Made by a program: the position numbers and the translations under genes
Part shown: positions 2,155-50,470 of the stretch, one piece after another
How positions within the stretch are numbered: position 1 is the stretch's first letter
Layout of the letters: each line of letters opens with the position of its first letter
The notes under the pieces: generated by a model
What the model was told of the DNA's origin: nothing
What the model saw: the letters and a program-made list of their open reading frames with translations, nothing else
Database searches by the model: none
Source: a plasmid
Sequence record: NZ_CP041047.1
Direction: 5' to 3' (one strand)
Length of the DNA: 64,000 nucleotides

Positions 2155-3566
2155 GTGTGGATGCCGTTTTAAATGCCACTAAAGGCCTGATTGTAGCGCC
2201 TGCCGGATGCGGCAAAACCCACCTGATTACTGACGCTCTGAGTGTTGCACAAAGTAAGCCGTATCTCGTGCTGACGCATACAACTGCAGGTGTAACGGCA
2301 CTCAAAAAGCGATTGAGTCGTTTTGCAATTCCTCCGCGAAACTATATTGTGACAACAATCGATGGATGGGCGCTGAAGATAGCAGGCTGTTTCCCGGGAT
2401 TGTGCCCGCTTGACGTTGGTCCTGAAAATCCAACCCTTTTCTACCCTTCTCTTCGCCGTGCCGTACTGAACTTGATTGTTAACGGTAATATTAGCGAAAT
2501 CATCACAGCTACTTACTCGCGTTTGCTGGTCGATGAATACCAGGACTGCAATAGTGAACAGCATGAACTGACTTGTGCGCTTTCACGTTTGCTACCAACG
2601 GTCGTCTTTGGTGACCCGATGCAATGTATCTTCAGCTTCAGCGGCCCTATGCCTGACTGGACCCGAACCGTTGAGACTTTTTTCCCTACTCTGGCAACCT
2701 TGCAGACGCCCTGGCGCTGGAACAATGCCCAAACCCCAGATTTGGGCCAATGGATCCTTGAGCAAAGACATCGTTTACTTCGCCGGGAGCGCATTGACTT
2801 AAAGTCTTGTCCTGAATATGTCCGTTTTCATCCTCTTTCACGAAATCACAATGACAATATCCAGCGCCAGCAGCGCGAATATTACTCGCTGCTGCGACAT
2901 TTCCCCAACGACTCGATTTTGGTTATGGGTGATTCACGAAGAGCTTCATCCCGGCATCAATTTGCACAACGTATTAATGGTATTGATGTTGTTGAACCCG
3001 TTGATCTGACTGATGTGATGAGAATGGCCACTTCCCTTGACGAGGCTAATACCGCTAACGTGATGCCAAATATATTACAGGCAGCAGCTGAGCTGATGAC
3101 AAATGTGGGCGTTAGCGCAACCCTACGCAGAATTGGTTCTATTCAAGCCGGTCGAAACATAACGCCCCCTTCTTCACTTGAAATTGCATTAGTAGAGCTT
3201 GCACTGGCACCCACCCGACAAAACATGCGAACAACGCTTCTCTTGCTTGAAGAGAAGTATGAAACTCGCGTATTCAGGGCCGGAGCGCTGCAAGTGCTAA
3301 AAGATGCAATAAATCTGTCCATCAGTTCACCCGAAAAAAGCATTCATGAATCAGCATCTGTCATTCGTGAACAACGCAGATACCAGGGAGAAGGACGTGT
3401 ATCGCATCGCTCAATAGGCTCAACACTTCTTCTGAAAGGACTGGAATGCGATCACGCATTAATACTGGATGCAGGAAATATGGGAGCAAGTGATTTGTAT
3501 GTTGCACTCTCCAGGGGGGCTAAATCTGTTACGGTCTTCTCAGTCCGTGATGAATTCACACCCTGA
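2151..3566 (+). CDS. gajB: UvrD-like helicase (GajB-like, Gabija)
   Basis: 471 aa. The N-terminal LIVAPAGCGKTHLITDAL is a UvrD/PcrA-type Walker A. It is translationally coupled to the upstream OLD ATPase (ATGA overlap). Confidence 0.6.
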   Translation: MSVDAVLNATKGLIVAPAGCGKTHLITDALSVAQSKPYLVLTHTTAGVTALKKRLSRFAIPPRNYIVTTIDGWALKIAGCFPGLCPLDVGPENPTLFYPSLRRAVLNLIVNGNISEIITATYSRLLVDEYQDCNSEQHELTCALSRLLPTVVFGDPMQCIFSFSGPMPDWTRTVETFFPTLATLQTPWRWNNAQTPDLGQWILEQRHRLLRRERIDLKSCPEYVRFHPLSRNHNDNIQRQQREYYSLLRHFPNDSILVMGDSRRASSRHQFAQRINGIDVVEPVDLTDVMRMATSLDEANTANVMPNILQAAAELMTNVGVSATLRRIGSIQAGRNITPPSSLEIALVELALAPTRQNMRTTLLLLEEKYETRVFRAGALQVLKDAINLSISSPEKSIHESASVIREQRRYQGEGRVSHRSIGSTLLLKGLECDHALILDAGNMGASDLYVALSRGAKSVTVFSVRDEFTP

Positions 3567-3696: not shown

Positions 3697-4458
3697 CTAT
3701 AACTGTGAGGGAGTCGAAATAACTACATTTGATTGCCATTCGGATTCACCACGACGGCGAAAATCTCTGATAACAGCCTCTATGACATCCACGTTCAAAG
3801 CTGGCGCATCAACAATCATTTTAAGGCCGATTCCGTAGGAATAGCCAGGTAAGTAACGGTACTCACTGTAAATTTGTATGGGAGTATTAAGCGCTATTTC
3901 TTGTTCTCGCTTCGAAAGATACTCAGAAAAAGTTAATCCATTGAATATTGCATAGCGAGTAAGATGCCTTGGACTATCGCGTTGCATGGTATCTAGCCTA
4001 AATTCTTCTTCACGCTGATGTGTATTCAACAAACTGTAGGCTTCTTCAAAGGCTAATGAACCAACTACATCATTAAAAGCGGTCTGCGTGGTAATGATTT
4101 CAGCATTCCATAATACGTCAGGCTGGAGACCTAAAAAATAGATATCGCTCCAGTTCCAGATATAATCTTTGCTGTTATAATATTGATCTATATCGCATTC
4201 ATCGTAGAAGATGCCACCATAGATATGACGAGTATTCCGGAGACGATTTTTCAGCTGAATCACTTTTTGCCGACGTTTTCGACGCGAAAGAGAGATAAAA
4301 GAGCGATGCTTTCTTATGCTCGGCATTGAGACCTCTATACTATCAGAGTTATGCTTACCTGAAAAATGGCAGCCGATCAGGGTAATGGAAAAAAAGTATA
4401 CTTTCAAGCGTTGGCTTAAAGTCTGTTCAGCGATAACATCGTTCTTCGTCGCTGACAA
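3697..4458 (-). CDS. hypothetical protein, AT-rich islet (alternative start near 4326)
   Basis: 253-aa ORF in an AT-rich segment with no motif I recognise. An internal Met (MPSIRKH…) would give about 210 aa. Confidence 0.4.
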   Translation of the reverse strand: MSATKNDVIAEQTLSQRLKVYFFSITLIGCHFSGKHNSDSIEVSMPSIRKHRSFISLSRRKRRQKVIQLKNRLRNTRHIYGGIFYDECDIDQYYNSKDYIWNWSDIYFLGLQPDVLWNAEIITTQTAFNDVVGSLAFEEAYSLLNTHQREEEFRLDTMQRDSPRHLTRYAIFNGLTFSEYLSKREQEIALNTPIQIYSEYRYLPGYSYGIGLKMIVDAPALNVDVIEAVIRDFRRRGESEWQSNVVISTPSQL

Positions 4459-6880: not shown

Positions 6881-8077
6881 TTACTTAAACCGCGCCTTAA
6901 GGGATTTAATTTGGGGGGTCGTTGCCAGCTCACAGCACCAGGCTTCAGTATCTGGGAAGGCAGAAATTTTATGGCGTAGCTCGTGTAGGCGCTCGTTTTC
7001 GGGATCAACACCGTGCAGCGGCAAAAAATCCGGGGTCAGGATGCACAGTGCGCAGGCTGCAAAGCCTTCCATGCGCTTTTCAGCGCCCTCAAGCTGTATG
7101 GTCACCAAATTACGCGTTAGTCGATCCACTTCCACCGGATCATCACTGTTACGAATAGCCTCTACCACGATTGTGTTGTAATTGCGATAGAGATCGGTTT
7201 CGGAATCACCATGCGCAAATACTGGCACCTGGGCCCGACGCTGTCGATATTGTTCAAAGGTCATCTCAATCACCTCTAACGCCAGCTGCTTATCAATCCG
7301 GGTCGTATCAGCCTTATAGAAAAGTGATTGTGCTAGCTGATGGCCAGCGTATATCTCTCCAAGCCGAAACATTCCCGAGAGTGCCATGATGCCCCGCCAG
7401 GTTTTAATGGGCTCTCCGGTGTTAATCCAGCGTGTAGCAATGGTGCCAACCTCAAGAATGAGCAACTCCCAGGCAGGTGAAGAACGAACTTTGGTCATAA
7501 GGCTGTCTTCCTGGGCCAGGAAGTGTAAAGCGATAGCTCGGTACACATGTTTTTGCTCAGGATTCTCAGACCCAACTAAATGATCAAACACATGGTGGAA
7601 TTCCTCAATCAGGCGGCCTTCATCTTTGGCCTGAACCATCTCCTGATAATTTGATTCATACTTGTCTTCTACAATCGCCAGGGGCTGCACTAACTCGATT
7701 AGGTTCACACACTGAACATAAAGATTATCCGGCACCCGGAAATGTGCTTTCGCTGCATGGTGATTGATAAATGCAGACAGGCGGTCAGCCATAGCCTTAC
7801 GGCGATCAATAACCTGGTTCCAGGACAAACCTTCATCGACGACAAGGGCAAGTGCCGGTATATCATTGAGCTTTTCGACGCCCAGCATGGCAGTCAACAA
7901 ATCCGTTTCACCCGACTGTTGCCCTTGGACATGGTACGCATCATGGTAACCTTGCCGAAATGTGTTGATATCGGCTACAGAGTCAAATTTTTTGAGACTT
8001 GATTTAATGCGGCCGATGGCCGTGCGAGCAAGTTTACGGTCGAATTTCTGCGACGCGAATGACGATGGTGAGTTCAT
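6881..8077 (-). CDS. hypothetical protein (398 aa), operon partner of the zinc-finger protein
   Basis: Long ORF with coding-like composition and no motif I recognise. Its stop at 6881 sits 3 bp from the downstream ORF, whose last codon ends at 6877. Confidence 0.5.
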   Translation of the reverse strand: MNSPSSFASQKFDRKLARTAIGRIKSSLKKFDSVADINTFRQGYHDAYHVQGQQSGETDLLTAMLGVEKLNDIPALALVVDEGLSWNQVIDRRKAMADRLSAFINHHAAKAHFRVPDNLYVQCVNLIELVQPLAIVEDKYESNYQEMVQAKDEGRLIEEFHHVFDHLVGSENPEQKHVYRAIALHFLAQEDSLMTKVRSSPAWELLILEVGTIATRWINTGEPIKTWRGIMALSGMFRLGEIYAGHQLAQSLFYKADTTRIDKQLALEVIEMTFEQYRQRRAQVPVFAHGDSETDLYRNYNTIVVEAIRNSDDPVEVDRLTRNLVTIQLEGAEKRMEGFAACALCILTPDFLPLHGVDPENERLHELRHKISAFPDTEAWCCELATTPQIKSLKARFK

Positions 8078-8460
8078 GGTTTTTCCTCAAGTAGACAAAG
8101 TCCTGACACATAAAAAGTGCCATGTATTGGACCCGGAGTCGTCTGACCCCCTTGAGGTTGGGTAGTAGCCTAACCCTTTTACCGTATCGCGCTTGCCCTG
8201 TGATGTCAATACACCTTACCCCAATGACGCTATAACGCTTTTTACAACCTTTTATTAGTTTGGAAAAGGTCCATGAACTGAAGCAGAGTAAGCTGTCAGA
8301 ATATATTTAAAAGAGGCGCATTTCCTGTTAGTTCATGAAGTTCTCTTAAAGTGATTTCAACTTTCTGTTAAAAAAATCTTTTATAGCAGAGAAGCACACG
8401 CATTAAAAACCCGGCCACTGTCACTGTGACTGGATAAGCCGACGGGACCTGCGTTTCTCA

Positions 8461-11409: not shown

Positions 11410-11480
11410 TCAGTGTTCTGTAGGCGTCATTAACTGTCAGAAAACAGTGGTTATAAGGAGGAACGCCATCTCCGCCGGGC
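11410..11480 (-). promoter_or_regulatory. candidate fluoride riboswitch (crcB RNA motif) upstream of CLC-F
   Basis: On the minus strand the leader reads GGCGGAGAUGGCGUUCCUCC–UUAUAACCACUG–hairpin–AAUGACGCCUAC. This matches the consensus GGNGAUGGNGUUCNCC…AACC…CUGAUGANNCCUAC. Confidence 0.55.
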
Positions 11481-11694
11481 ACTATACCTGTTCTGCCCAA
11501 CGTTGACCATGATTTTTCCTGCTTCGCCTGCGGAATTAGCCTCCCCTCATTCGCAAAACCGTAACGGATCGCCGGAAAATGGAGTGTTCCGCAGATTGTC
11601 TGCCAGTGAAATATTATTCAGGATAGACAGACCAAGATACAGGAAATGAAGATGACAGTTTTTAAATATTGCCACTGCCATCTCCCACCCATCA

Positions 11695-12273: not shown

Positions 12274-12489
12274 AAATGTTAATTACCCAGAAAAAAGAAG
12301 CATAATACTGCCTGATTCTTAATATTCACTTAAGAAAAATCCATGATGGCTGGCAGATCCCCCCAGATTCTCACCGTTCATTCTCGCTGAAGCCCTGGAG
12401 GGATAGGATGACACCGCGCGTAAGGAATAACCTACACAACAGAGAACAATAATTGATATTGATTTATTGCAACGGTCCATATAAGATTG

Positions 12490-12565
12490 ATCAACAAGGT
12501 GATGGTGCTCCACCTTACCCAACCGCCGGTTTCTTTAAAAACCGGATGATGACGCCTGATATACA
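12490..12565 (+). promoter_or_regulatory. candidate fluoride riboswitch (crcB RNA motif) upstream of the ppaC-usp-eno-gpmA-crcB operon
   Basis: The leader reads AAGGUGAUGGUGCUCCACC–UUACCCAACCGCC–GGUUUCUUUAAAAACC–GGAUGAUGACGCCUGAUA. It matches the conserved P1, linker and 3' pseudoknot segments of the fluoride aptamer. Confidence 0.65.
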
Positions 12566-27618: not shown

Positions 27619-27805
27619 GTTGGAGTTATTACCGAGCTCTCCATGATTTATATGCAGAACTTCAGCGAATTTGGCCACAGGTGGAAGAGTATTATACTCA
27701 GATGCCAACATACCAAATGGAACGTGAGTTTTACGCTGAACTCGTGCAAATAAAGATAAAGGCTGAAGAGTACCTACGTAGAACTAAGCAGGAACAATAA
27801 AACAA

Positions 27806-27915: not shown

Positions 27916-29529
27916 TTACTTGGTCAGTTCTAACCGGCGCTGATAACGCTCCCAGCGCATGACGAGATTCGCCGGGTCTATCGGACGGCAAAGCCCGGTA
28001 ATCACATGGCCATCGTATTGCTGCAAATCGGGATCTTCGGCCTGCGCGACAGGGTCAACGTGGACGGTCAACGTCTCCGGGCAAATGGCAAGGACGTTGT
28101 CGTCAAACAGCCGGTGCAGATCGATACGAAGCAGCAAGCCATTACTCCAGTGATCCAGACCACCAGCACTATGCTCTACCAGGTGTGCGGCCTCTGTCCT
28201 GCGGCGTAAGCTTGCTCCTGTAATCACGCAGCGGTCGTTACAGTTTCGACGGACGGTAGCAGCGAAATCAGCCTGATCCGGCCTGGTCACCACGCAGGTT
28301 GTAGAGCCTTCACGTTTAGGGTGCGCCAGGGGCGCAACAGACGGTTCCTGCATGGAGACGCGGGATTGTTCAACTTCGACGGAGATCAGGGCTGGCTGGG
28401 GTGCTGGCTGCGATTCTCGCACTACATCGTGCGTAATGCCGTTGGTTTCCGCTTCTTTAAGCTTTCCGACCTGGCTTGCTGCGGCCAGCGCACGGTCACG
28501 CGCTTCCTGCTTTTCTTCCTTCGTCCATTTACGTTTGGCAGGTTCGTGTGTGGGAGCCGGGAGATTATCTGGTTCATTGACCGGCACAGGGTCAACCATC
28601 TTTTTGCCTTGCATTGACTCAGCCATAAACCGGCGAGCCAGCACATCAGCGCGTAGTCCCGTATCGCGATGCTCATAAAGATAGGTGCGAAATTCCGTCA
28701 CACGTCCGCCCACCAGCTTAATGGCCTCACTCATTCCGGCCTTGTTGATGGAAGCGCTACTGGTTTTCAGGTTGGGCAAACCGTACTGACGTGGGTTTTC
28801 TTTCTGGGTGCTTTCAGCGCCGGTCAGACGGCTCTCTCTGATTTTTCCATTATGCCGGGTCGGTGAATCGCCATTCGGATGTTCAGGAGATCGCCAGGTG
28901 TCTGCGGGAGGCGTATACGTTGTACCGTTCTTCTGGGCCATGTAGGCGAGCACTTCCCGCATATCAACACGGGTCTTTTTGCGCTCGGCAATACCTTCAT
29001 CAATCTGACGTTCAAGATCCGCTCGCTTCTCTTTGTGCAGGCGGCGCGATTCCAGTACGGTTTCGTTATCATTCAGGCGTTCTACTATCTCACCGGTATT
29101 TAAATTCTGGTTTGCCAGTTCGCGCACCATGCTCAGCACTAAATCGCCCATTGGATGCCGGGTTGTGATACCCAGGCGCTCAAACGCCCGGTTGGTGATC
29201 TCGTTTCTGCGGGTTTGATTGGCCAGTTCCGTGATCTTCTTCAGGCGCTCGATTTCGGCAAGCTGTGCCCGCTTCATCAATTCGCTGCCGGTTAGCATGG
29301 CAACAATCTGAACCTGACTCTCACCCTTCAGTAAGTGCTCGGTGATGAATGTAGAAAGAGCTGCCCGCCCACCGTGATTTTTAGGGATACCCAGCGTGGC
29401 CAGAATGTCTCTCTTTAGAATATTACGCAGGTTAGCGGCCTTTTTTTCCGCTTCATGTTTGGCCTGCATGTCCCGGCTATGCTGCTTACGTTCGGCCCGG
29501 GTTTTCTTCACCTTCACTTTCGTCGTCAC
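27916..29529 (-). CDS. HNH_2-type endonuclease-domain protein with a long basic/coiled N-terminal region
   Basis: The C-terminal CVITGASLRRRTEAAHLVEHSAGGLDHWSNGLLLRIDLHRLFDD has the CxxTG…AAH…NGL…H..FD pattern. The N-terminal ~400 aa has no motif I recognise. Confidence 0.55.
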   Translation of the reverse strand: MTTKVKVKKTRAERKQHSRDMQAKHEAEKKAANLRNILKRDILATLGIPKNHGGRAALSTFITEHLLKGESQVQIVAMLTGSELMKRAQLAEIERLKKITELANQTRRNEITNRAFERLGITTRHPMGDLVLSMVRELANQNLNTGEIVERLNDNETVLESRRLHKEKRADLERQIDEGIAERKKTRVDMREVLAYMAQKNGTTYTPPADTWRSPEHPNGDSPTRHNGKIRESRLTGAESTQKENPRQYGLPNLKTSSASINKAGMSEAIKLVGGRVTEFRTYLYEHRDTGLRADVLARRFMAESMQGKKMVDPVPVNEPDNLPAPTHEPAKRKWTKEEKQEARDRALAAASQVGKLKEAETNGITHDVVRESQPAPQPALISVEVEQSRVSMQEPSVAPLAHPKREGSTTCVVTRPDQADFAATVRRNCNDRCVITGASLRRRTEAAHLVEHSAGGLDHWSNGLLLRIDLHRLFDDNVLAICPETLTVHVDPVAQAEDPDLQQYDGHVITGLCRPIDPANLVMRWERYQRRLELTK

Positions 29530-29539
29530 TACTCTTTAC

Positions 29540-30430
29540 CTGGCAGGGCATCATCATCATTGATACCGGTCGCGGAGGCCTGCGGTCGTTACCTATCCCC
29601 CGCCGCTGGCCGCACATTTGATGGCGAGAGTATACCTGCTCTGTCGGCAGCGCGTCTTTTCTTGTCTTCATATATGCAAAATTAGTCCAACATACAAAAG
29701 CGATCAGGGTCAACACCCCCGCGTCCACCCTGCAAAGCGCCCTTGACCTTAATACCCACTGAAACCCTCGCGCCCCCGGCCCCTCTTTTTTTTCTCTTTT
29801 TTTCTCTCTTTTTCTCATATTTTCTCGCATGGCTCATCCAGCGACCGGAGTCCCTATGTGGGGTTTGCAGGAACCGGACGGAAAGACCGGCACGGCCCGG
29901 TTGCCGCAGGCGGGGGAAATGGCCAGACCGGGCACGGCGGTTTCTTTTTAAAATGGTGGGCCCGGGCAGAATGGTTACCCCGGGCACGGGCCCGATCCTG
30001 AAAACGACACGGAGGTTTCAGGTACGGCTCCCCTTTCTGCCCCAAGCGAAGCGCAGGGGCAGAAAGGGGAAGTTTATTTGTATGTTGGACTAATAGAGGG
30101 TGATGTACGTGAATTCTGCCCGGGTTTTCCCGGCGATTATCCCGGAATCCATCACCGATATTCTTCCCTTTATCCTAATACCGGTGATGGCCACCGGCAC
30201 AAAATGCAGGGTGTTCCGGCCCGGCGAAGATGCGGCCGCAAACCAGCACGAAAGTGTCGGTCGGAAAAAGGTGAAGCCAATGCTGGTGGCCGCACGGAAT
30301 TCAGGCGGGCACTCGACGTTACTCACCCACGACTCCGGGTTAACGGTTCGACTCCGGGTAGCCTGGCCCGGGTGAAGCCCGGGGCAGGCTACCCTGTTTT
30401 TGTATGTTGGACTATTTTGACGGGTACTGG
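29540..30430. repeat. GC-rich non-coding region: two tandem structured modules, each ending in a hairpin+T-tract and the 15-mer TTGTATGTTGGACTA, plus an inverted copy of the 15-mer upstream
   Basis: The 15-mer is at 30079–30093 and 30399–30413 (+) and at ~29681–29695 (reverse complement). Hairpins CCCCTTTCTGCCCC…GGGGCAGAAAGGGG (~30035–30070) and GGGTAGCCTGGCCCGGG…CAGGCTACCC (~30355–30395) each precede a T-run. Confidence 0.5.
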
Positions 30431-30586: not shown

Positions 30587-30805
30587 TTAACGCCCTCGCT
30601 CATACCGCACCAGCTCTTCAGGTTTAGACAACCACTCTGTAATCTGGTGATCATGCATTGACGTATCGTATTCAAAGTCTGGCGGATAATACATATCGCC
30701 AACAAACCACTCTTCCTGCTTTAATTCATCCTCATCTATATCACAACCGCTATCAAGCCAGTCCCATCGGCCTCTTTTGTTAAAAATCACTCTCCCATTC
30801 GGCAT
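30587..30805 (-). CDS. hypothetical small protein
   Basis: 72-aa ORF with coding-like composition. Confidence 0.3.
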   Translation of the reverse strand: MPNGRVIFNKRGRWDWLDSGCDIDEDELKQEEWFVGDMYYPPDFEYDTSMHDHQITEWLSKPEELVRYERGR

Positions 30806-33130: not shown

Positions 33131-35100
<1,970 letters not shown>

Positions 35101-36947: not shown

Positions 36948-37814
36948 TCAGGAACCTGTTAGTTTGGGATTCCGATCCGTGATCTGAATGGTGGGTACGC
37001 TGGTGTCCACCAGGTAGTAAAATTTCAGGTAACCGATGCTGGCAAGCACATCGAGAGCAGTTCGCATTTTCCGGTTCTGTTCGGCAATGCGCCCATTGAG
37101 CAGTAAACGCTGTCGAAGTCTGTCAAAGGTGATCGGGGCTGGATGTTGAGGTAGCGCTTCAAAAAATGTATAGAGCGCCTGAGCCGTTTCATTCCTGGTA
37201 AGTAGCTCCAGGGGTTTCTTCCGCAACAGAGTAAGATGATCTGAACGGTACAAATCCCAGAGTCGTTCGTCGGCTTCCAGGATGATGTAATCACTTTCAC
37301 CATCAAATTCCGCCTCTTTCAGCAACCCGGCTACTTTGAACTTGGTGATCCCCGGGTTCTTCTCAAACCGAATGCTTTTTGAGCGAATCTTCGTCAACGA
37401 ATCGGCTATCTCATTGCGCAGTTTCGTGCTGTAGCGTTTTGATGGGTAGCCGCAGAGTTTGGCAAATTCACTAAAGGGCATTTTAATCCGGTTACCTTTC
37501 AGCGCATCAGGCGATACGCTGAAGGAATGGACGATTGCTGTCCAGCACCGGAAGTCCTGGAAATAATTCAGCATCGGGCCGGTGATCTTTATGTCCGTGT
37601 ACCCTTCCTGTTTTGCAATTTCCAGACTGGATAGCGCTTCCGTCACGTTTAGCGTGACCGTTGCCTCTGTTCGGCAACTGGGAGTAAAAACGCCCAGGCG
37701 GAGCAGTGATACAGGTTGTACTGATGAATTTTTTGTCACCGTCAGCTTTCCAGTCGACGGCTGATTGAAGTCGGGAATAGCGTCCTTGAAAAGAAGAACT
37801 TCATTCGAGTTCAT
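36948..37814 (-). CDS. repA: RepFIB-family replication initiator RepA (replicon 1)
   Basis: 288 aa. …LLRLGVFTPS…SAQALYTFFEALPQHPAPITFDRLRQRL… closely parallels the RepFIB RepA conserved blocks. Confidence 0.75.
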   Translation of the reverse strand: MNSNEVLLFKDAIPDFNQPSTGKLTVTKNSSVQPVSLLRLGVFTPSCRTEATVTLNVTEALSSLEIAKQEGYTDIKITGPMLNYFQDFRCWTAIVHSFSVSPDALKGNRIKMPFSEFAKLCGYPSKRYSTKLRNEIADSLTKIRSKSIRFEKNPGITKFKVAGLLKEAEFDGESDYIILEADERLWDLYRSDHLTLLRKKPLELLTRNETAQALYTFFEALPQHPAPITFDRLRQRLLLNGRIAEQNRKMRTALDVLASIGYLKFYYLVDTSVPTIQITDRNPKLTGS

Positions 37815-38764: not shown

Positions 38765-39350
38765 AAGAGATCCCTGTACGCTGCAAGCCGCATGGTTACT
38801 GGGCTCAAGGGCATTTTATGACAATGGTAATGACTTTTTTGACATTGGTAATGATTAAAATGACATTGGTAGTGACTATTTCGACGTTAGTAGTGAGTAT
38901 TTGTGACAATGGTAGTGAGTTTTATTGTGTGATCTGAAGGTATAACTCTTAAAGAGTTTTGAGTATATTTCTATTATAATTCATATAGATACCATCTATC
39001 ACCTGTATGATGAAACAAAATTATTAAAATCTTATCCACTGTTTTCTATACGCATTTTCCTTTCATGCCCGTACATATTTTCGACAATTTAGCTATTCGA
39101 TGTTGATTTAACTCGAAGAGAGAATTTATCCCCATTTTCCACAAGGTAGTTCCAATAATTAGTACCTTACGAGTTCCCATAGATCACAAGAGATCCCCGC
39201 AGCTCGGAAGCCAGACGGCACAAGGCCTGGAAGCCAATCGGTGACAACGGTAGTGATTATTTTGACATTGGTAGTGAGTTTTTTAACGGTAGTAGTGAGT
39301 TTTTTGACAACGGTAGTGATTGCGGCGACAATGGTAGTGATTTTTTAAAG
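38690..39350. repeat. tandemly duplicated origin module upstream of repA2: two copies of [leader with AGTTCCAATAA / AGAGATCCC motifs + five ~21-bp direct iterons GACAWYGGTARTGAKT]
   Basis: Direct iteron clusters are at 38818–38925 and 39241–39350. Leader motifs recur at ~38700 and ~39140. An AT-rich stretch follows each cluster. Confidence 0.65.
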
Positions 39351-39560: not shown

Positions 39561-40679
39561 ATGACCAATGAGAAAGATTCTGAGCAGCAAGGCCAGATGG
39601 TTACCAGGGCTTTCTCTGTAACAGAGAGAGAGACAGGTAAAGAAATTATTTTACGTCCTAATAGCAGCAGGACGGTTCAGTCTATCGCGCTCATGCGCCT
39701 TGGGTTGTTTGTGCCATCACCAAAAAGCGTTGGCCGTCAGAGTCGTGAATACAAAACTGTTGGCTTTGATGCCACGAAAGAACTACAGACACTTTCTTTG
39801 ATGGAGAGCGAGGGTTTCACCAATATCTCGATCGTGGGTCAGCGCCTCGATATGTCTGTTGACTTCAAAACGTGGATGGGAATCATCCGAACGCTAGCTA
39901 ACCATCCGATTGATAACGATAAGATCAGCCTCAAATTTACTGAGTTTCTGAAGCTCTGTAACCCTGAAAATTATCGTTCCTCTACCGCATCCCGTAAGCG
40001 TATCGACGCGTCGTTACGCAGGCTGGCATCCGTGATGTTGTCCTTCACCAGCACCCACTCGTCAAAGGTGTATACGACGCACCTGGTGCAGTCTGCCTTG
40101 CTTGACCCGGACTCTGATCAGGTAGAGCTACAGATAGACCCTAAGATATTCGAGTTGTATCAGTACGACCACAAGGTTTTGATGCAGCTGAAGGCTATCA
40201 AGGAACTGGCGAAAAAAGAGAGCGCACAGGCGCTTTACACGTTCATTGAGTCACTTCCACCAAATCCAATCCCGATCTCCTTAACGAGACTTAAGAACCG
40301 ATTAAATCTTAAGACCCGTGCCAACAGCCAGAACGCCACAGTACGTAAGGCATTGGAGGAGCTGGCATCCATTGGTTACCTTCAGTACACCGAAGTAAAA
40401 AAAGATGGGAAGGTTTATTTCCAGATCCACAAACGCGATCCTGATTTGAATCTGAACAATATCCAACCACCACCTGATGGTGATGGCGAGGGTGATGCTG
40501 ATGAGGAGAACAATGGCACGTCGGGTAAAAATAATGGTGAGCCACTGGAAGGTGAATTGTGCCCACCAGATGAGCCCATTGATGGGGATGAAACGTTAAC
40601 CATCCATGACTTAACAGCTGAAGAACTTCACTACATTCGCAGCCTTAGAAGCCAGAAAAAGAACAATCCCGCCAGCTAG
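39561..40679 (+). CDS. repA: RepFIB-family replication initiator RepA (replicon 2) with an extended acidic/Gly-rich C-terminus
   Basis: 372 aa. …IALMRLGLFVPSP…RLDMSVDFKTWMGIIRT…ESAQALYTFIESLPPNPIPISLTRLKNRLNLK… matches RepFIB RepA blocks. Confidence 0.75.
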   Translation: MTNEKDSEQQGQMVTRAFSVTERETGKEIILRPNSSRTVQSIALMRLGLFVPSPKSVGRQSREYKTVGFDATKELQTLSLMESEGFTNISIVGQRLDMSVDFKTWMGIIRTLANHPIDNDKISLKFTEFLKLCNPENYRSSTASRKRIDASLRRLASVMLSFTSTHSSKVYTTHLVQSALLDPDSDQVELQIDPKIFELYQYDHKVLMQLKAIKELAKKESAQALYTFIESLPPNPIPISLTRLKNRLNLKTRANSQNATVRKALEELASIGYLQYTEVKKDGKVYFQIHKRDPDLNLNNIQPPPDGDGEGDADEENNGTSGKNNGEPLEGELCPPDEPIDGDETLTIHDLTAEELHYIRSLRSQKKNNPAS

Positions 40680-40744: not shown

Positions 40745-42200
40745 TGTTTAGCTTAATGACAACGGTATTGAGTGACGCGGTCACTACTGTTGTCATTGCG
40801 GGGTGACCACTCATGACAATGGTAATGAGACTAGATAGCTCACTACTGTTGTCATCATCGACATCTCTCCAGACCAGCTTCTCAGGGAAGGTCTTACACC
40901 GCTCACTACCATTGTCGGAATCGCCGGTACAGACAAATCGCTGATACCCATGACACCATGACATCGGCAATGAGTCTTGGCAGCTCACTGCTGTTGTCAT
41001 CATCGACAACTCTCCAGAGCAGCTTCTCGGAGAAGACCTCATACCGCTCACTACCATTGTCGGCATCGTCAGTACGGATTTATCGCTGATTCCCATGACA
41101 CAATGACAACGGTAATGAGTGATTTGACTCACTACCGCTGTCATTTGCTCCCGGCGCATTTGAATGACCACTGTATTGACTAAGAATACTCACTACCGTT
41201 GTCATTCATGATTCAGACCAAGTTCTTACTGCTCCACCAGCACAATGACAACGGAAATGAGTTCTGTTGGTCATTACCGTTGTCATATGCATTCCAGGTT
41301 AATCAGGCCTTTCAGGTAGCTATGGTAAGGATTCACTCGCCGTACTGTCTGCTCGTACTTGAGGGGCGGGATGAATGACCGTGGTAGTGACCGCGTCACT
41401 CCCTGTCGTTGTCGTTGTATGAATACATGGCCTGTCGGTGACAATGGAAATGAGTCCAACCGCTGTCGTAGCTAACCTGATTGGTCAATGACAATGGATG
41501 TGATTTTTTCAAGTCTCTACCATTGTCATCGTTTCCAAGTACATTTCAGTGGGGTCGTTCCGGCGATGACGAATCAAGTGAGTGCGGGATCACAACCATT
41601 GTCGAGGCACAACTTGCCGGTTGTAGCCATACCGAACGCTGCGACAACGATAGTGATCTCGATCACTCATTACCGTTGTCACCAGGCGGATGGTGAAGCA
41701 CCAGAATCACTACTGTTGTCATCTAACATTCTGCTACCCATGCAACCAATGACGATGGTAGTGAGCAACGCCGTCTACTTGCTGTATATAGGGATAGTAT
41801 GATGAGCCATAACAATGGTAATGACTCACTACCATTGTCATAGTTCCTGTACTTGATTGCCGGTAACCAGACAAGGGTTAACCATTAAGTCACTACCGTT
41901 GTCATTACAGAAAGGTACTTTCCTTAATTGTCATTACCGTTGTCGACCATGCACCCTCTTACCAGTAGTAACGGTTCGTTAATTATGTGAAGGTGATCAT
42001 TACCATTGTCACTGGTTACACTCCCGGCAGATTCAAAAATCGAGTGACAATGGATGTGAGTTCGATGCGCAGGACGGCATCTCAGTGCCGATGGCAATAG
42101 TTATGAGCTGACCAGACTGGTGACAACGATAATGAGCCAAGCATTGAAGCCCGTTTGCTACGACAACGGTAATGATTAGGCCTCACTACCGTTGTCAGAC
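40745..42200. repeat. ~1.45-kb array of >30 iteron copies, mostly arranged as inverted pairs (TGACAAYGGTARTGAG–N6-10–CTCACTACYGTTGTCA)
   Basis: Counted by eye, e.g. 40757–40800, 40812–40858, 40965–41010, 41105–41145, 41245–41286, 41643–41683, 41810–41840 and 42160–42197. The motif is the same as in the direct iterons upstream of repA2. Confidence 0.7.
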
Positions 42201-42207
42201 ACGATGC

Positions 42208-42927
42208 TTACTTCGGCCAGGTAAGTTCATCCCACCGGGATTTTAACCAGGCAGGGTTTACAGGTTTTCTTGTCGGTAATATTGGCCGAGCTTCATACGC
42301 GATGAGATCGTCATCCTTAGCCAGGATAGTGGGGTGGAAATGGATTGTCAGGGTGCTGGGATTAATCACACACAGGCCGTTGTCGTATAACCGATGTATG
42401 TCTGCCCGAAGCCACAGGCCATTACTCCAGTGGTCAGAGCCCGCTTTATGATGCTCAATCAGATGTGCTGCTTCTCCCCTGCATTTTGTCTTCACACCGG
42501 TGACGACACACCGCTCCATGCAGTTGAAGTATACCCTGTCGCTGAATTTCTTCTGATCAGGACGGGACATCGCACCGTACCGGCGATATCCAAAGCGTTT
42601 TGGTGAGACTTTCTCATCCAGGTCATCGTCAAATGAATCCTGACTCTCAGGCCGGAAGGTCTTCAGACGAACTTCCCAGCGAATGCCGTCACGTGCAAAT
42701 TGCTGCCCTACGCGTGGGTCATCATCAGGCCAGATAGCTATTCCCTTAGCTTTAACAGCCAGCCGGAACTGGCGGGCATCAGCAGGGGTTCCCGTGCGGG
42801 TTAGTGTCATAAATTCATGGACACTCCGGTACTCCACTGGTTCTCCTGATGAGCCAGCAGGCCTGGCGAGAACCTTGTCTTTAATATCGCGGGCGAGTTT
42901 ATCGGTTTGATTTTTATCTGAAGCCAT
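42208..42927 (-). CDS. HNH_2-type endonuclease-domain protein (paralogue of the 537-aa protein's C-terminus)
   Basis: CVVTGVKTKCRGEAAHLIEHHKAGSDHWSNGLWLRADIHRLYDNG aligns with the HNH block of the 27916–29529 protein. Confidence 0.55.
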   Translation of the reverse strand: MASDKNQTDKLARDIKDKVLARPAGSSGEPVEYRSVHEFMTLTRTGTPADARQFRLAVKAKGIAIWPDDDPRVGQQFARDGIRWEVRLKTFRPESQDSFDDDLDEKVSPKRFGYRRYGAMSRPDQKKFSDRVYFNCMERCVVTGVKTKCRGEAAHLIEHHKAGSDHWSNGLWLRADIHRLYDNGLCVINPSTLTIHFHPTILAKDDDLIAYEARPILPTRKPVNPAWLKSRWDELTWPK

Positions 42928-48102: not shown

Positions 48103-49575
48103 TCAGTCGTCATCATGATACTCAGGGCCACCATAATTATCAAATCGAGACCATTGACCATTAAATGTGAGACGTACTGTCCCTATAGGCCCGTTGCGCT
48201 GTTTACCTATGATAATTTCGGCTATACCTTTCATATCGCTATTTTCGTGATAGACCTCATCACGGTAAATAAACATGATCAGGTCAGCATCCTGCTCAAT
48301 GGAGCCTGACTCTCGCAAATCTGAGTTTACCGGACGTTTATCGGCACGTTGTTCAAGCGAGCGGTTTAGTTGCGATAAAGCGATTACCGGTACATTCAGC
48401 TCTTTTGCCAGTGCTTTCAGAGATCGGGAGATTTCAGCAATTTCCAGAGTTCTGTTGTCAGATAACGACGGTACACGCATCAACTGAAGGTAGTCGATCA
48501 TAATGAGGCTAAGCCCACCGTGTTCGCGGGACAATCGACGCGCCCGGGAGCGAACGTCCATAGGTGTTAGGCCAGAGCTGTCATCAATGTAAATGTTCTT
48601 TTTTTCCAGCAGCAGTCCCATTGTGCCGGATAACCGGGCCCAGTCCTCGTCATCGAGCTGTCCGGTTCGGATGCTGGTCTGGTTGACGCGTGATAGCGAT
48701 GCCAGTGAGCGCATCATGAGCTGTTCCGTAGGCATTTCCAGGCTGAAAATCATGACGGGCTTATCGTTTGTCAGCGATACATTCTCGCAGATGTTCATTG
48801 CAAACGTAGTTTTCCCCATTGAGGGTCTGGCAGCGATAATAATCAAATCCGAGGGCTGTAGACCGGCTGTCTTCTTGTTCACGTCCACGTAGCCGGTATC
48901 AACTCCAGTGACCCCGTCATGGGGACGCTGGAACAAGGCTTCAATCTTGGTAACGGTTCTGTCCAGAATGCTGCTGATATTTTCCGGCCCACCGCTTTTA
49001 TTTCCCCTTTGCTCTGCAATCTGGAAAATCCGGCTTTCTGCAAGATCAAGCAATTCGTCACTTGTCCTACCTTCCGGGTTGTAACCGGCCTCGGTTATTT
49101 CGTTGGCAACTTTTATCATTTCCCTGATTACGGCACGTTCCCTGACGATCTGCGCGTAGGCAATTATATTTGCCGCACTGGGCGTATTTTTTGACAGTTC
49201 TGCCAGATAGGCGAAACCGCCGAGACTATCCAGCTTACCTTCTCCCTCGTTTTCGATGTGCTCAGCGAGGGTTATCAAATCAATCGGGAATTGATTCGCA
49301 ACGAGCGATCTCATTGCAGAGAAAATTGAGCGATGCGGTCGAGAACTAAAATCCTGCTCACTAACGATTTCTGCCACATCATCCCATCTCTGGTTTTCAA
49401 GCATTAACCCGCCCAGCACGGACTGTTCCGCTTCTATCGATTGCGGAGGGGTTTTTAAGCTGTATTCAGCTGTTTGCTTTGTCTCACCTGTTTCGGTAAA
49501 CGAGATGTCCGCCATAGTCATAAGTGGCCTCAGAGGTTCTGGAATAGCTTTTGTTTTTGTAATTGTCGTGCGCAT
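48103..49575 (-). CDS. DnaB-family replicative DNA helicase (plasmid/phage-encoded)
   Basis: AARPSMGKTTFAMN is Walker A. IMIDYLQLM is Walker B. The SQLNR and GKQRNGP motifs are present. The N-terminal domain reads …IEAEQSVLGGLML…. Confidence 0.85.
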   Translation of the reverse strand: MRTTITKTKAIPEPLRPLMTMADISFTETGETKQTAEYSLKTPPQSIEAEQSVLGGLMLENQRWDDVAEIVSEQDFSSRPHRSIFSAMRSLVANQFPIDLITLAEHIENEGEGKLDSLGGFAYLAELSKNTPSAANIIAYAQIVRERAVIREMIKVANEITEAGYNPEGRTSDELLDLAESRIFQIAEQRGNKSGGPENISSILDRTVTKIEALFQRPHDGVTGVDTGYVDVNKKTAGLQPSDLIIIAARPSMGKTTFAMNICENVSLTNDKPVMIFSLEMPTEQLMMRSLASLSRVNQTSIRTGQLDDEDWARLSGTMGLLLEKKNIYIDDSSGLTPMDVRSRARRLSREHGGLSLIMIDYLQLMRVPSLSDNRTLEIAEISRSLKALAKELNVPVIALSQLNRSLEQRADKRPVNSDLRESGSIEQDADLIMFIYRDEVYHENSDMKGIAEIIIGKQRNGPIGTVRLTFNGQWSRFDNYGGPEYHDDD

Positions 49576-49898: not shown

Positions 49899-50470
49899 GC
49901 AGCAATCCCCCGCTTATTAGCCAGCGCAACGGTATCCAGAAGTACGAAGTCATCAAGCAGGTTCAGTCCTGCGGGCGTCTTCTGATCACGCCATAGCGCA
50001 TCCAGTACATCGGTGTCTGGCATTCCCGTTGGGATTAGGCTTAGAAGTTCGGATAACGTATCTACCTGTAGCATGTGGCAGATAGAAGCCAGCATTATTC
50101 CCTCTGACGCTTTATCCATAAGACCACCGATCAGAATCTGAATTTCCGGGGTCATAACAAAATGCTCATAATTGGATTTATTGAATCGGCACTGAATGAG
50201 TTTATAACCCTTGAACTCAGTAATTAACTCCTGAAGGAATACATGCAGCATATCTGGTTTTGTTTTTCTAATAGCCGCTACCTGCATTGCAATTTTTAAA
50301 ATGCCATCATCAACTCTTTCGTGCGGGCATCCTGCGGAGGAATAAATACTTTTTGCCTTTTCGAGCCAATTTTGCAGCTCGATATAATTAGTCTGAATAT
50401 TCAACGCGACCCCCATTGCTATCCAAAAAAGTCTATAACCCTGATATTTTAATGCGCTCCTGTCTATCAT
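49895..50470 (-). CDS. hypothetical protein
   Basis: 191-aa ORF overlapping the next gene by 4 bp. Confidence 0.4.
   Translation of the reverse strand: MIDRSALKYQGYRLFWIAMGVALNIQTNYIELQNWLEKAKSIYSSAGCPHERVDDGILKIAMQVAAIRKTKPDMLHVFLQELITEFKGYKLIQCRFNKSNYEHFVMTPEIQILIGGLMDKASEGIMLASICHMLQVDTLSELLSLIPTGMPDTDVLDALWRDQKTPAGLNLLDDFVLLDTVALANKRGIAA

Follow-up and report, generated by a model that had tools for sequence, protein, structure and literature searches.

The plasmid record NZ_CP041047.1 was analysed over a stretch of 64,000 nucleotides (the window), which carries, in a gap of 1,057 bp between the gene of an HNH_2 endonuclease (27916–29529, minus strand) and an open reading frame of 72 amino acids (30587–30805, minus strand), three copies of a short repeat within conserved non-coding DNA. 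We think that these repeats are variant Ter sites for a Tus protein encoded by the plasmid itself, and that together they form a narrow replication fork trap; we put the probability of this reading at about 0.7. The core of the repeat does not vary between relatives, the first copy points the opposite way to the other two, a tus gene is present in the plasmid family, and a like arrangement is found in two related plasmid lineages. Binding of Tus at these sites is suggested by the comparison of sequences, and the stopping of forks there would be its consequence.

The repeats, their relatives and the plasmid Tus

A sequence-only reading of the region had pointed to 15-mers, hairpins, a polypyrimidine run and a direct repeat, all of which could be located directly in the sequence, and its view of the 15-mers as a meaningful set of cis-acting sites has been borne out. 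The 15-mer, TTGTATGTTGGACTA, occurs exactly three times, at 29683–29697 (minus strand), 30078–30092 (plus) and 30400–30414 (plus), a count matched by none of 100 shuffled sequences, and each copy is preceded by a GC-rich hairpin. The inverted arms of copies A and B match over 18 nt at 100%, 378 bp apart, and those of A and C over 21 nt at 95%. The candidate site Ter-A (29678–29700, minus) reads CTTTT-G(6)TATGTTGGACTA-ATTTT on the minus strand, with a 13-mer core, GTATGTTGGACTA, at 29683–29695; Ter-B (30075–30096, plus) reads TATTT-G(6)TATGTTGGACTA-ATAG, with the 13-mer at 30080–30092; and Ter-C (30397–30418, plus), at which the conservation of the region ends, reads TTTTT-G(6)TATGTTGGACTA-TTTT, with the 13-mer at 30402–30414. 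In its 22-mer form the candidate site is TATTTGTATGTTGGACTAATAG.

When the 13-mer is aligned to TerB of Escherichia coli, AATAAGTATGTTGTAACTAAAGT (PMC4499146), the G(6)TATGTTG part is identical and is followed by G-ACTAA in the plasmid and by TA-ACTAA in TerB; relative to the E. coli Ter site used for comparison, GTATGTTGTAACTA, the plasmid core is 1 bp shorter. G(6)TATGTTG, the same as in TerA and TerB, is found in the three copies and in all five lineages, and the A/T-rich stretch before G(6), which had been described as a T-tract, resembles positions 1–5 of Ter. The plasmid site is to be regarded as a variant and not as a canonical Ter, because it is one base shorter and because no GTTGTAACTA with at most one mismatch occurs in the window. 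The same canonical sequence has no match with fewer than three mismatches in the complete plasmid pBML2531, of the Rts1 type described below. As no canonical Ter was found, the inverted pair would be the most Ter-like target that plasmid Tus has. A weak Ter-like word, TTTG-GTATGTTGG-CATC, lies at 27701–27713 (minus; at 7805, plus, in L005), 200 nt downstream of the HNH gene and oriented like Ter-A; it matches at 10 of 13 positions, probably by chance.

The region is present in 109 records of PLSDB, of which 108 are at least 99% identical, and in 108 it forms a single collinear piece covering at least 80% of the query. The carriers are large (190–450 kb) MOBH plasmids of Citrobacter, Klebsiella, Enterobacter and E. 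coli (five plasmids in the latter); the region belongs to their backbone, and the records differ from each other by IS26 and Tn3-family insertions. Diverged copies were recovered through homologues of the HNH protein. In these, the region is 95% identical in L005, 92% in L166, 89% in L006, where the spacer between Ter-B and Ter-C is mostly deleted, and about 77–83% (83% ungapped) in L008, whose HNH protein is only 57% identical, and L007 keeps only copy A and 55 nt. The 13-mer is invariant in all of them (L005, L006, L007, L008 and L166). The region is clearly functional, because its ungapped identity to L008 is 83% versus 29–56% at the four-fold degenerate sites of the flanking genes; directly past copy C, identity to L008 falls to about 40%. 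Scans for further relatives were made in a phage collection, E. coli genomes, metagenomes and viral contigs; all that came up were chance hits or copies with at least 99% identity. The Col(VCM04) replicon marker was not located, and there was no Vibrio plasmid among the matches to the region.

This selection is not exerted on a protein. The earlier statement that the region holds no real gene is upheld, as indels or stop codons interrupt every open reading frame of at least 18 amino acids in one relative or more, and substitutions show no three-base periodicity. The 'hypothetical protein' of 78 amino acids annotated by PGAP at 30090–30326 (minus; WP_071602877.1) is evidently a spurious call, since its frame is broken in L005, L166 and L008.

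A Tus-family protein (PF05472, E = 1.4e-43) is encoded in L006 at 7459–8349, 850 bp past the HNH gene. The gene is found in 104 PLSDB plasmids with 95–99% identity, including the window-type plasmids NZ_CP056382.1 and CP050835.1, and the tus product of window-type plasmids is 97% identical to the L006 protein (plasmid Tus has the accession WP_007372144.1). The gene is not inside the 64-kb window: in window-type plasmids it is about 97 kb from the trap, and in NZ_CP056382.1 it follows umuDC, with about 93 kb of accessory DNA between tus and trap. Across 20,395 records, the region and tus occur in exactly the same five E. coli plasmids. Plasmid Tus is a remote homologue of E. coli Tus (1ECR; phmmer E = 4e-15). 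Mulcair et al., in 2006, are said to have assigned the cytosine-binding pocket to I79, F140, H144, G149 and L150. In plasmid Tus the first four of these residues are kept and L150 is replaced by V, the motif RF.ALH..C.GV is retained in all three plasmid Tus proteins, and in the alignment to 1ECR the plasmid protein has a gap where E. coli Tus has the stretch around R198.

Two other plasmid lineages show a like arrangement. In Rts1 and pBML2531 (IncT; Tus 45% identical), TATTGCATGTTGGTTTAATTTATC lies at 3525 (minus) and 3945 (plus), corresponding to 3835 and 4255 in Rts1; this pair is 420 bp apart, about 2.7–3.1 kb from repA; umuDC comes next, and tus lies on the far side of a transposon. In p33Kpn22-2 (Tus 42% identical), ATTGCATGTTGGTCTAAT lies at 3924 (minus) and 4250 (plus), with tus at 11.8 kb. 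Each lineage thus has its own variant of the inverted pair, GCATGTTGGTTTA in Rts1/IncT and GCATGTTGGTCTA in p33Kpn22-2, and within each plasmid all copies carry one shared variant. The sites of Rts1 and p33Kpn22-2 have G(6)CATGTTG, and ATGTTGG..TA is common to the three lineages, in surrounding DNA that is 60–78% identical; the Tus proteins of the three families are 42–48% identical. The gene order rep, pair, tus is the same in all three, with ancestral distances of 1.6–8 kb: trap and tus are about 1.6 kb apart in Rts1 (transposon removed) and 7.6 kb in p33Kpn22-2, and umuDC stands between pair and tus in L006 and Rts1. The gene adjoining the pair differs between lineages (HNH, umuD or an open reading frame of 112 amino acids), and therefore the element is not tied to HNH. 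Sites in pBML2531, Rts1 and p33Kpn22-2 have the same polarity, such that forks would enter and could not leave. The interior of the pair is also homologous across the families, with a polypurine tract in the same place, TTTCAG and a CCCC..GCGAAGCG..GGGG hairpin.

Some observations on these lineages stand apart from the argument. The three families share without any change the word GCGAAGC, clamped by CCCC/GGGG and about 15–17 nt ahead of G(6) in the Ter-B-type site (30046–30052 in the window, about 3556–3575 in L171 and about 3960–3980 in L176). In pBML2531 (L171/L170/L172), GTATGTTGGATTA, one mismatch from the 13-mer of the window, lies at 50405 (minus) in an unannotated stretch of IncT DNA, where about 0.1 such occurrences are expected by chance. 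A lone Cas6/Cse3/CasE-like gene follows tus in window-type plasmids (7204–7584 in L168), and one in p33Kpn22-2 (6558–7121 in L176) lies between trap and tus, with a DEAD-box helicase and a RAMP protein as neighbours. A Photorhabdus contig with tus gave no sites.

Polarity and proposed working of the trap

The replisome is arrested when it meets a Ter site from the A(4)A(5)G(6) side (PMC4499146; PMC8707476). With the G(6) side taken from this literature as the non-permissive end, copy A (minus) is located at lower coordinates than copies B and C (both plus). Because Ter-A lies to the left of Ter-B, forks would be able to enter the interval 29.70–30.08 kb and unable to leave it. The origin from which they would start is an iteron origin at 38814–39346, formed by two clusters (38814–38925 and 39242–39346) of 21-bp repeats, TGACAWTGGTAGTGA, that sit between two Rep genes (36948–37814, minus, and 39561–40679, plus) with a Rep3_N match and a RepB family annotation.

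In the mechanism that we propose, Tus-Ter would stop a fork arriving from the G(6) side and let pass a fork coming from the other side. Ter-A would block leftward forks, that is, the short-arm fork from oriV, and Ter-B and Ter-C would block rightward forks, in this case the one that arrives after its way round the circle. The leftward fork from the origin at 38.8–39.3 kb would pass C and B and halt at A after about 9 kb, and the other would replicate all the remaining plasmid DNA, pass A and halt at B, with C serving as a back-up. Replication would be effectively unidirectional and would end inside 29.70–30.08 kb. The GC skew at third codon positions (plus strand) fits unidirectional replication weakly, being about −0.22 for the genes from Ter-A to oriV (one plus-strand gene included) versus about −0.03 for the backbone outside, with a one-sided p of about 0.04 by a rank-sum estimate.

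Around the replication region, a 145-bp tandem repeat (2.1 copies, 40812–41120) with iteron-like words lies downstream of the second Rep gene, and the backbone encodes a DnaB-family helicase (48103–49575, minus) and a second, shorter HNH_2 endonuclease (42208–42927, minus). An IS21-family element (33131–35100; IstA-like protein of 390 amino acids and IstB of 266) is located inside the predicted short replication arm, and other plasmids of the family have different insertion sequences elsewhere in that predicted arm.

Several points weigh against the fork trap. The first concerns the site itself: it reads GTTGGACTA, one base shorter than the canonical core, and lacks the 12-bp core by which chromosomal Ter sites are defined, so that a different register of contacts would be needed. 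Nor is the likeness to TerB decisive when taken alone, as 720 of 200,000 composition-preserving shuffles score as well in gapped alignment, and a few unrelated places in the window equal or exceed the score of the 13-mer. A second point is the linkage to tus. The TerB site of E. coli lies 11 bp upstream of tus, whereas no site adjoins the plasmid gene, with none at up to three mismatches upstream of tus in L168. Moreover, no tus gene was found within 10 kb of the trap in L008, and IncC plasmids encode Tus, yet the one deletion derivative scanned has no comparable pair. Third, nearly all genes point in the direction rep, trap, tus, and for this reason the fork going the long way would run head-on to most of them; in p33Kpn22-2 (L176, L178, L179) the fork that copies about 97% of the plasmid would run head-on to genes, if the trap works as proposed. 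Fourth, a long-range stem would equally lead one to expect that both inverted copies change together. Finally, the Ter sites cover only about 66 of some 740 conserved bases, and the trap does not account for the approximately 670 bp of conserved DNA between and beside them.

This remaining DNA has a marked structure. The trap interior, which was called module 1 (29701–30074), is non-coding and conserved, its identity to L008 being about 83% where that of neutral sites is about 50%; it holds a polypyrimidine tract, hairpins rich in CCSGG and three copies of the repeat AATGG-N4-CCCGGGCA. The tract (29780–29827, plus) is polypurine on the strand reading from rep to Ter-A, and in L006 and L008 its length differs by 9–10 nt. 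A hairpin (30029–30070, plus) flanks Ter-B on the non-permissive side and has the conserved core CTGCCCC (30037–30043), GCGAAGC (30046–30052) and GGGGCAG (30056–30062). Its arms (30029–30043 and 30056–30070) make a 15-bp stem, a lineage-specific derived extension; L005, L166, L006 and L008 have a 7-bp stem and then AGTGAAACCTTATTT. The hairpin on the non-permissive side of Ter-C (30356–30394, plus; arms 30356–30372 and 30378–30394) has the conserved core GCCTG-G-CCCGGG-TGAAG-CCCGGG-R-CAGGC, and in L005 and L008 neither the outer stem nor the T-run remains. A direct repeat, CGACTCCGGGT, was located at 30330 and 30349. The word CCSGG occurs 18 times in 29698–30414, or 25 per kb versus 2.7 per kb in the rest of the window (a nine-fold excess), CCCGGG occurs five times there (an excess of about 32-fold), and the two make up most of the small GC stems of this interval. 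The region had been described as GC-rich; its GC content is indeed raised, although only moderately (52–62% versus 43–55% in the flanks).

The spacer between Ter-B and Ter-C, or module 2 (30097–30396), is also conserved. Its last 125 nt or so are a paralogue of the approximately 125 nt before Ter-B (nhmmer E = 4e-28), which accounts for the impression of two modules and indicates that a unit of about 100 nt was duplicated together with its putative Ter site to give Ter-C. Module 2 is present in L005, L166 and L008 and absent from the Rts1-type plasmids and p33Kpn22-2, which have two sites only.

We regard the hairpins, the polypurine tract and module 2, speculatively, as accessory DNA that might slow forks or shield the sites from transcription. 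The speculation comes from two pieces of background: the DNA mini-hairpin formed by d(GCGAAGC) has exceptional stability, and Tus can be displaced by transcription. A bolder version of the fork trap would be an orthogonal plasmid Tus-Ter system with a core 1 bp below every described Ter, an ultra-narrow trap (0.33–0.42 kb) and accessory DNA acting in arrest or fusion. The GCGAAGC mini-hairpin about 15 nt before G(6) and the polypurine-polypyrimidine tract of about 50 nt would be this accessory DNA, for instance as a speed bump giving C(6) time to lock. We put it forward only tentatively, for in our opinion it is rather unlikely to hold as a whole.

Other explanations of the region

That the repeats serve something other than Tus, as operators or as a long-range pairing element, is the alternative that survives best, even if we think it improbable. 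As operators, the repeats would let a regulator loop the DNA to control the promoter of the HNH gene (or umuDC) by Ter-A; as a pairing element, they would make a long-range stem of 18–21 bp in a transcript or in single-stranded DNA. Copy A is indeed just upstream of a candidate sigma-70 promoter of the HNH gene (29629–29663, minus; −35 AAGACG, 18-nt spacer, −10 TATACT/TATAAT), which lies directly outside Ter-A and points away from the trap. This promoter, a consensus match only, is the sole promoter-like site kept in the window, L005, L166 and L008. The ability of A to pair with B or C over 18–21 nt is likewise in favour, as are the presence of the same variant on both arms in each lineage, which preserves complementarity, and the differences at the arm flanks in L008, which would be G-U pairs in plus-strand RNA. 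However, the 13-mer is invariant within the family, and ATGTTGG..TA across the three families, which argues for sequence-specific reading and not for mere complementarity. The change of the gene next to copy A from one lineage to another (HNH, umuD, 112-amino-acid frame) also counts against an operator, and the likeness to Ter and the linkage to tus would both have to be coincidences.

Still less probable are two or three structured non-coding RNA genes on the plus strand, ending in intrinsic terminators with the 15-mer just downstream, which the sequence-only reading had favoured as a tandem pair. Purifying selection without coding capacity is what such genes would leave. Module 2 also folds better than shuffled sequences, with z-scores of −3.4 on the plus strand and −5.3 on the minus strand, although covariation does not back this fold. 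In addition, a 42-nt deletion in L008 removes one hairpin and keeps a closing helix, with one compensatory and two wobble changes. The terminator hairpins are real as far as the hairpin-plus-T-run geometry of this lineage is concerned; in relatives, however, the stems and T-runs decay. No Rfam family was matched: the region has no hit at gathering thresholds, and with E up to 10 the only hits are chance miRNA-like or snoRNA hairpins. The compensatory changes that were proposed as a check came out at chance level: RNAalifold on the five lineages gave a covariation term of +8.5 (a penalty), with a double change in 1 of 196 pairs, an exhaustive helix search on both strands found compensation at the level of chance, and covariation in the alignment of the B and C paralogues was negative. 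Stems take uncompensated hits, such as those in the CCTGAAA/TTTCAGG stem in three lineages, and the plus strand has no conserved sigma-70-like promoter. Moreover, the most conserved element, the 13-mer, would be outside the putative transcripts, with one copy on the other strand. The word GGTTCGACTCC, which had been likened to a TΨC loop, is not a tRNA remnant, as ARAGORN found no gene and the word is not kept in L008. Elsewhere in the window, in the accessory part of the plasmid, there are two fluoride riboswitch aptamers (RF01734) at 11414–11482 (minus) and 12489–12565 (plus), with 48.1 and 43.4 bits, facing outwards.

The remnant of a mobile element, or a non-autonomous one, bounded by the inverted repeats A/B or A/C is very improbable, and so is the set of recombination or inversion sites suggested earlier. 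Perfect 18-bp inverted repeats 378 bp apart and 16-bp direct repeats flanking module 2 are what recommends them. Against a mobile element, there is a single locus per plasmid, with no target-site duplication at its flanks, and a further copy is found in none of 5,426 E. coli genomes; two patterns searched in a collection with one genome each of 185,579 species gave chance hits only, and JGI metagenomes gave chance hits or copies of the same locus at least 99% identical. Against recombination, 108 of the 109 PLSDB records are collinear, with neither inversion nor excision seen, the conserved neighbourhood holds no transposase or recombinase, and the natural deletion in L006 does not break at the 15-mer. 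What also speaks against both is that three plasmid families share the place of the region with respect to rep.

Other candidates were rejected. An HNH-guided RNA of the IscB/HEARO kind does not fit, as the distant HNH relatives L009 and L167 lack the region and the pair in Rts1 and p33Kpn22-2 has no HNH gene next to it; the iteron origin is at 38.8–39.3 kb, with a different repeat; a transfer origin (oriT) would have no transfer genes nearby; and none of the promoter types tried on the 15-mer (sigma-70, extended −10, sigma-54, extracytoplasmic function) fitted all copies. On inspection of the sequence, an integron attC site, Xer/dif, a retron, a diversity-generating retroelement and a type III toxin–antitoxin system lack their defining partner or geometry. 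Searches of the HNH protein, its neighbours and all open reading frames of the region with Pfam, PADLOC, NCBIfam and the PDB returned only HNH_2. Within the HNH_2 gene, the N-terminal half (28800–29450) is 65–84% identical between the window and L005 while its surroundings are 95–100% identical, a hypervariable or recombined segment in a near-identical backbone.

Known fork traps and significance

A fork trap of the kind that we propose is known from E. coli and from the plasmids R1 and R6K; cognate sites for a plasmid-borne Tus were not found described in our literature search. The E. coli system (TerA–J and Tus, with the 'mousetrap' lock at C(6)) likewise has asymmetric sites of about 22 bp with G(6)TATGTTG, in opposed clusters that let forks in and not out (PMC4499146, PMC8707476). 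It also shares with the plasmid the back-up site behind the first barrier and a PF05472 protein with conserved residues of the cytosine pocket. The differences are that the plasmid trap would be about 0.4 kb wide and not hundreds of kb, that it is 9 kb from the origin and not opposite to it, that none of its sites abuts tus, and that its Tus is a remote homologue with a gap at the R198 stretch.

Fork traps adjoin the origins of R1 and R6K, and the terRL-terRR pair of R1/R100 and the R6K terminus resemble the present case in that an inverted Ter pair near a plasmid origin halts one fork very early and so makes replication unidirectional (PMC10331603). The conserved interior of about 380 bp, with its hairpins and polypurine tract, has no described counterpart in them. 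R1 and R6K use canonical Ter sequences and the Tus of the host, whereas the plasmids studied here have a variant site and a tus gene of their own.

Plasmid-borne tus is widespread, and the chromosomal gene is thought to have been domesticated from such plasmids (PMC6549158). In PLSDB, about 1,300 plasmids bear tus. Pseudoalteromonas chromids replicate unidirectionally, and a search for ter sites with the E. coli consensus failed in them (PMC7858055). These chromids and the IncA/C, IncT and pAQU1 plasmids have in common with the present family a tus gene on a plasmid-derived replicon near the origin (PMC7858055; PMC6549158; PMC4036041); our literature search found no cognate ter sites for them, whereas candidates are now at hand in three lineages. 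In the bolder version given above, the present system could be close to the ancestral plasmid system behind that supposed domestication.

For annotation, the 'hypothetical protein' in the region should be dropped. For the biology of these plasmids, the matter is of wider interest, as tus is often carried by IncT, IncA/C and related MOBH plasmids, through which genes for carbapenemases and other resistances spread. The candidate sites in three lineages make the co-evolution of Tus specificity and Ter testable, as well as the C(6) lock with a shorter core. It can also be tested whether plasmids of 200–300 kb replicate unidirectionally, head-on to most of their genes, and what role the conserved DNA inside the trap plays. 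If true, an orthogonal Tus-Ter pair would be, besides, a useful tool.

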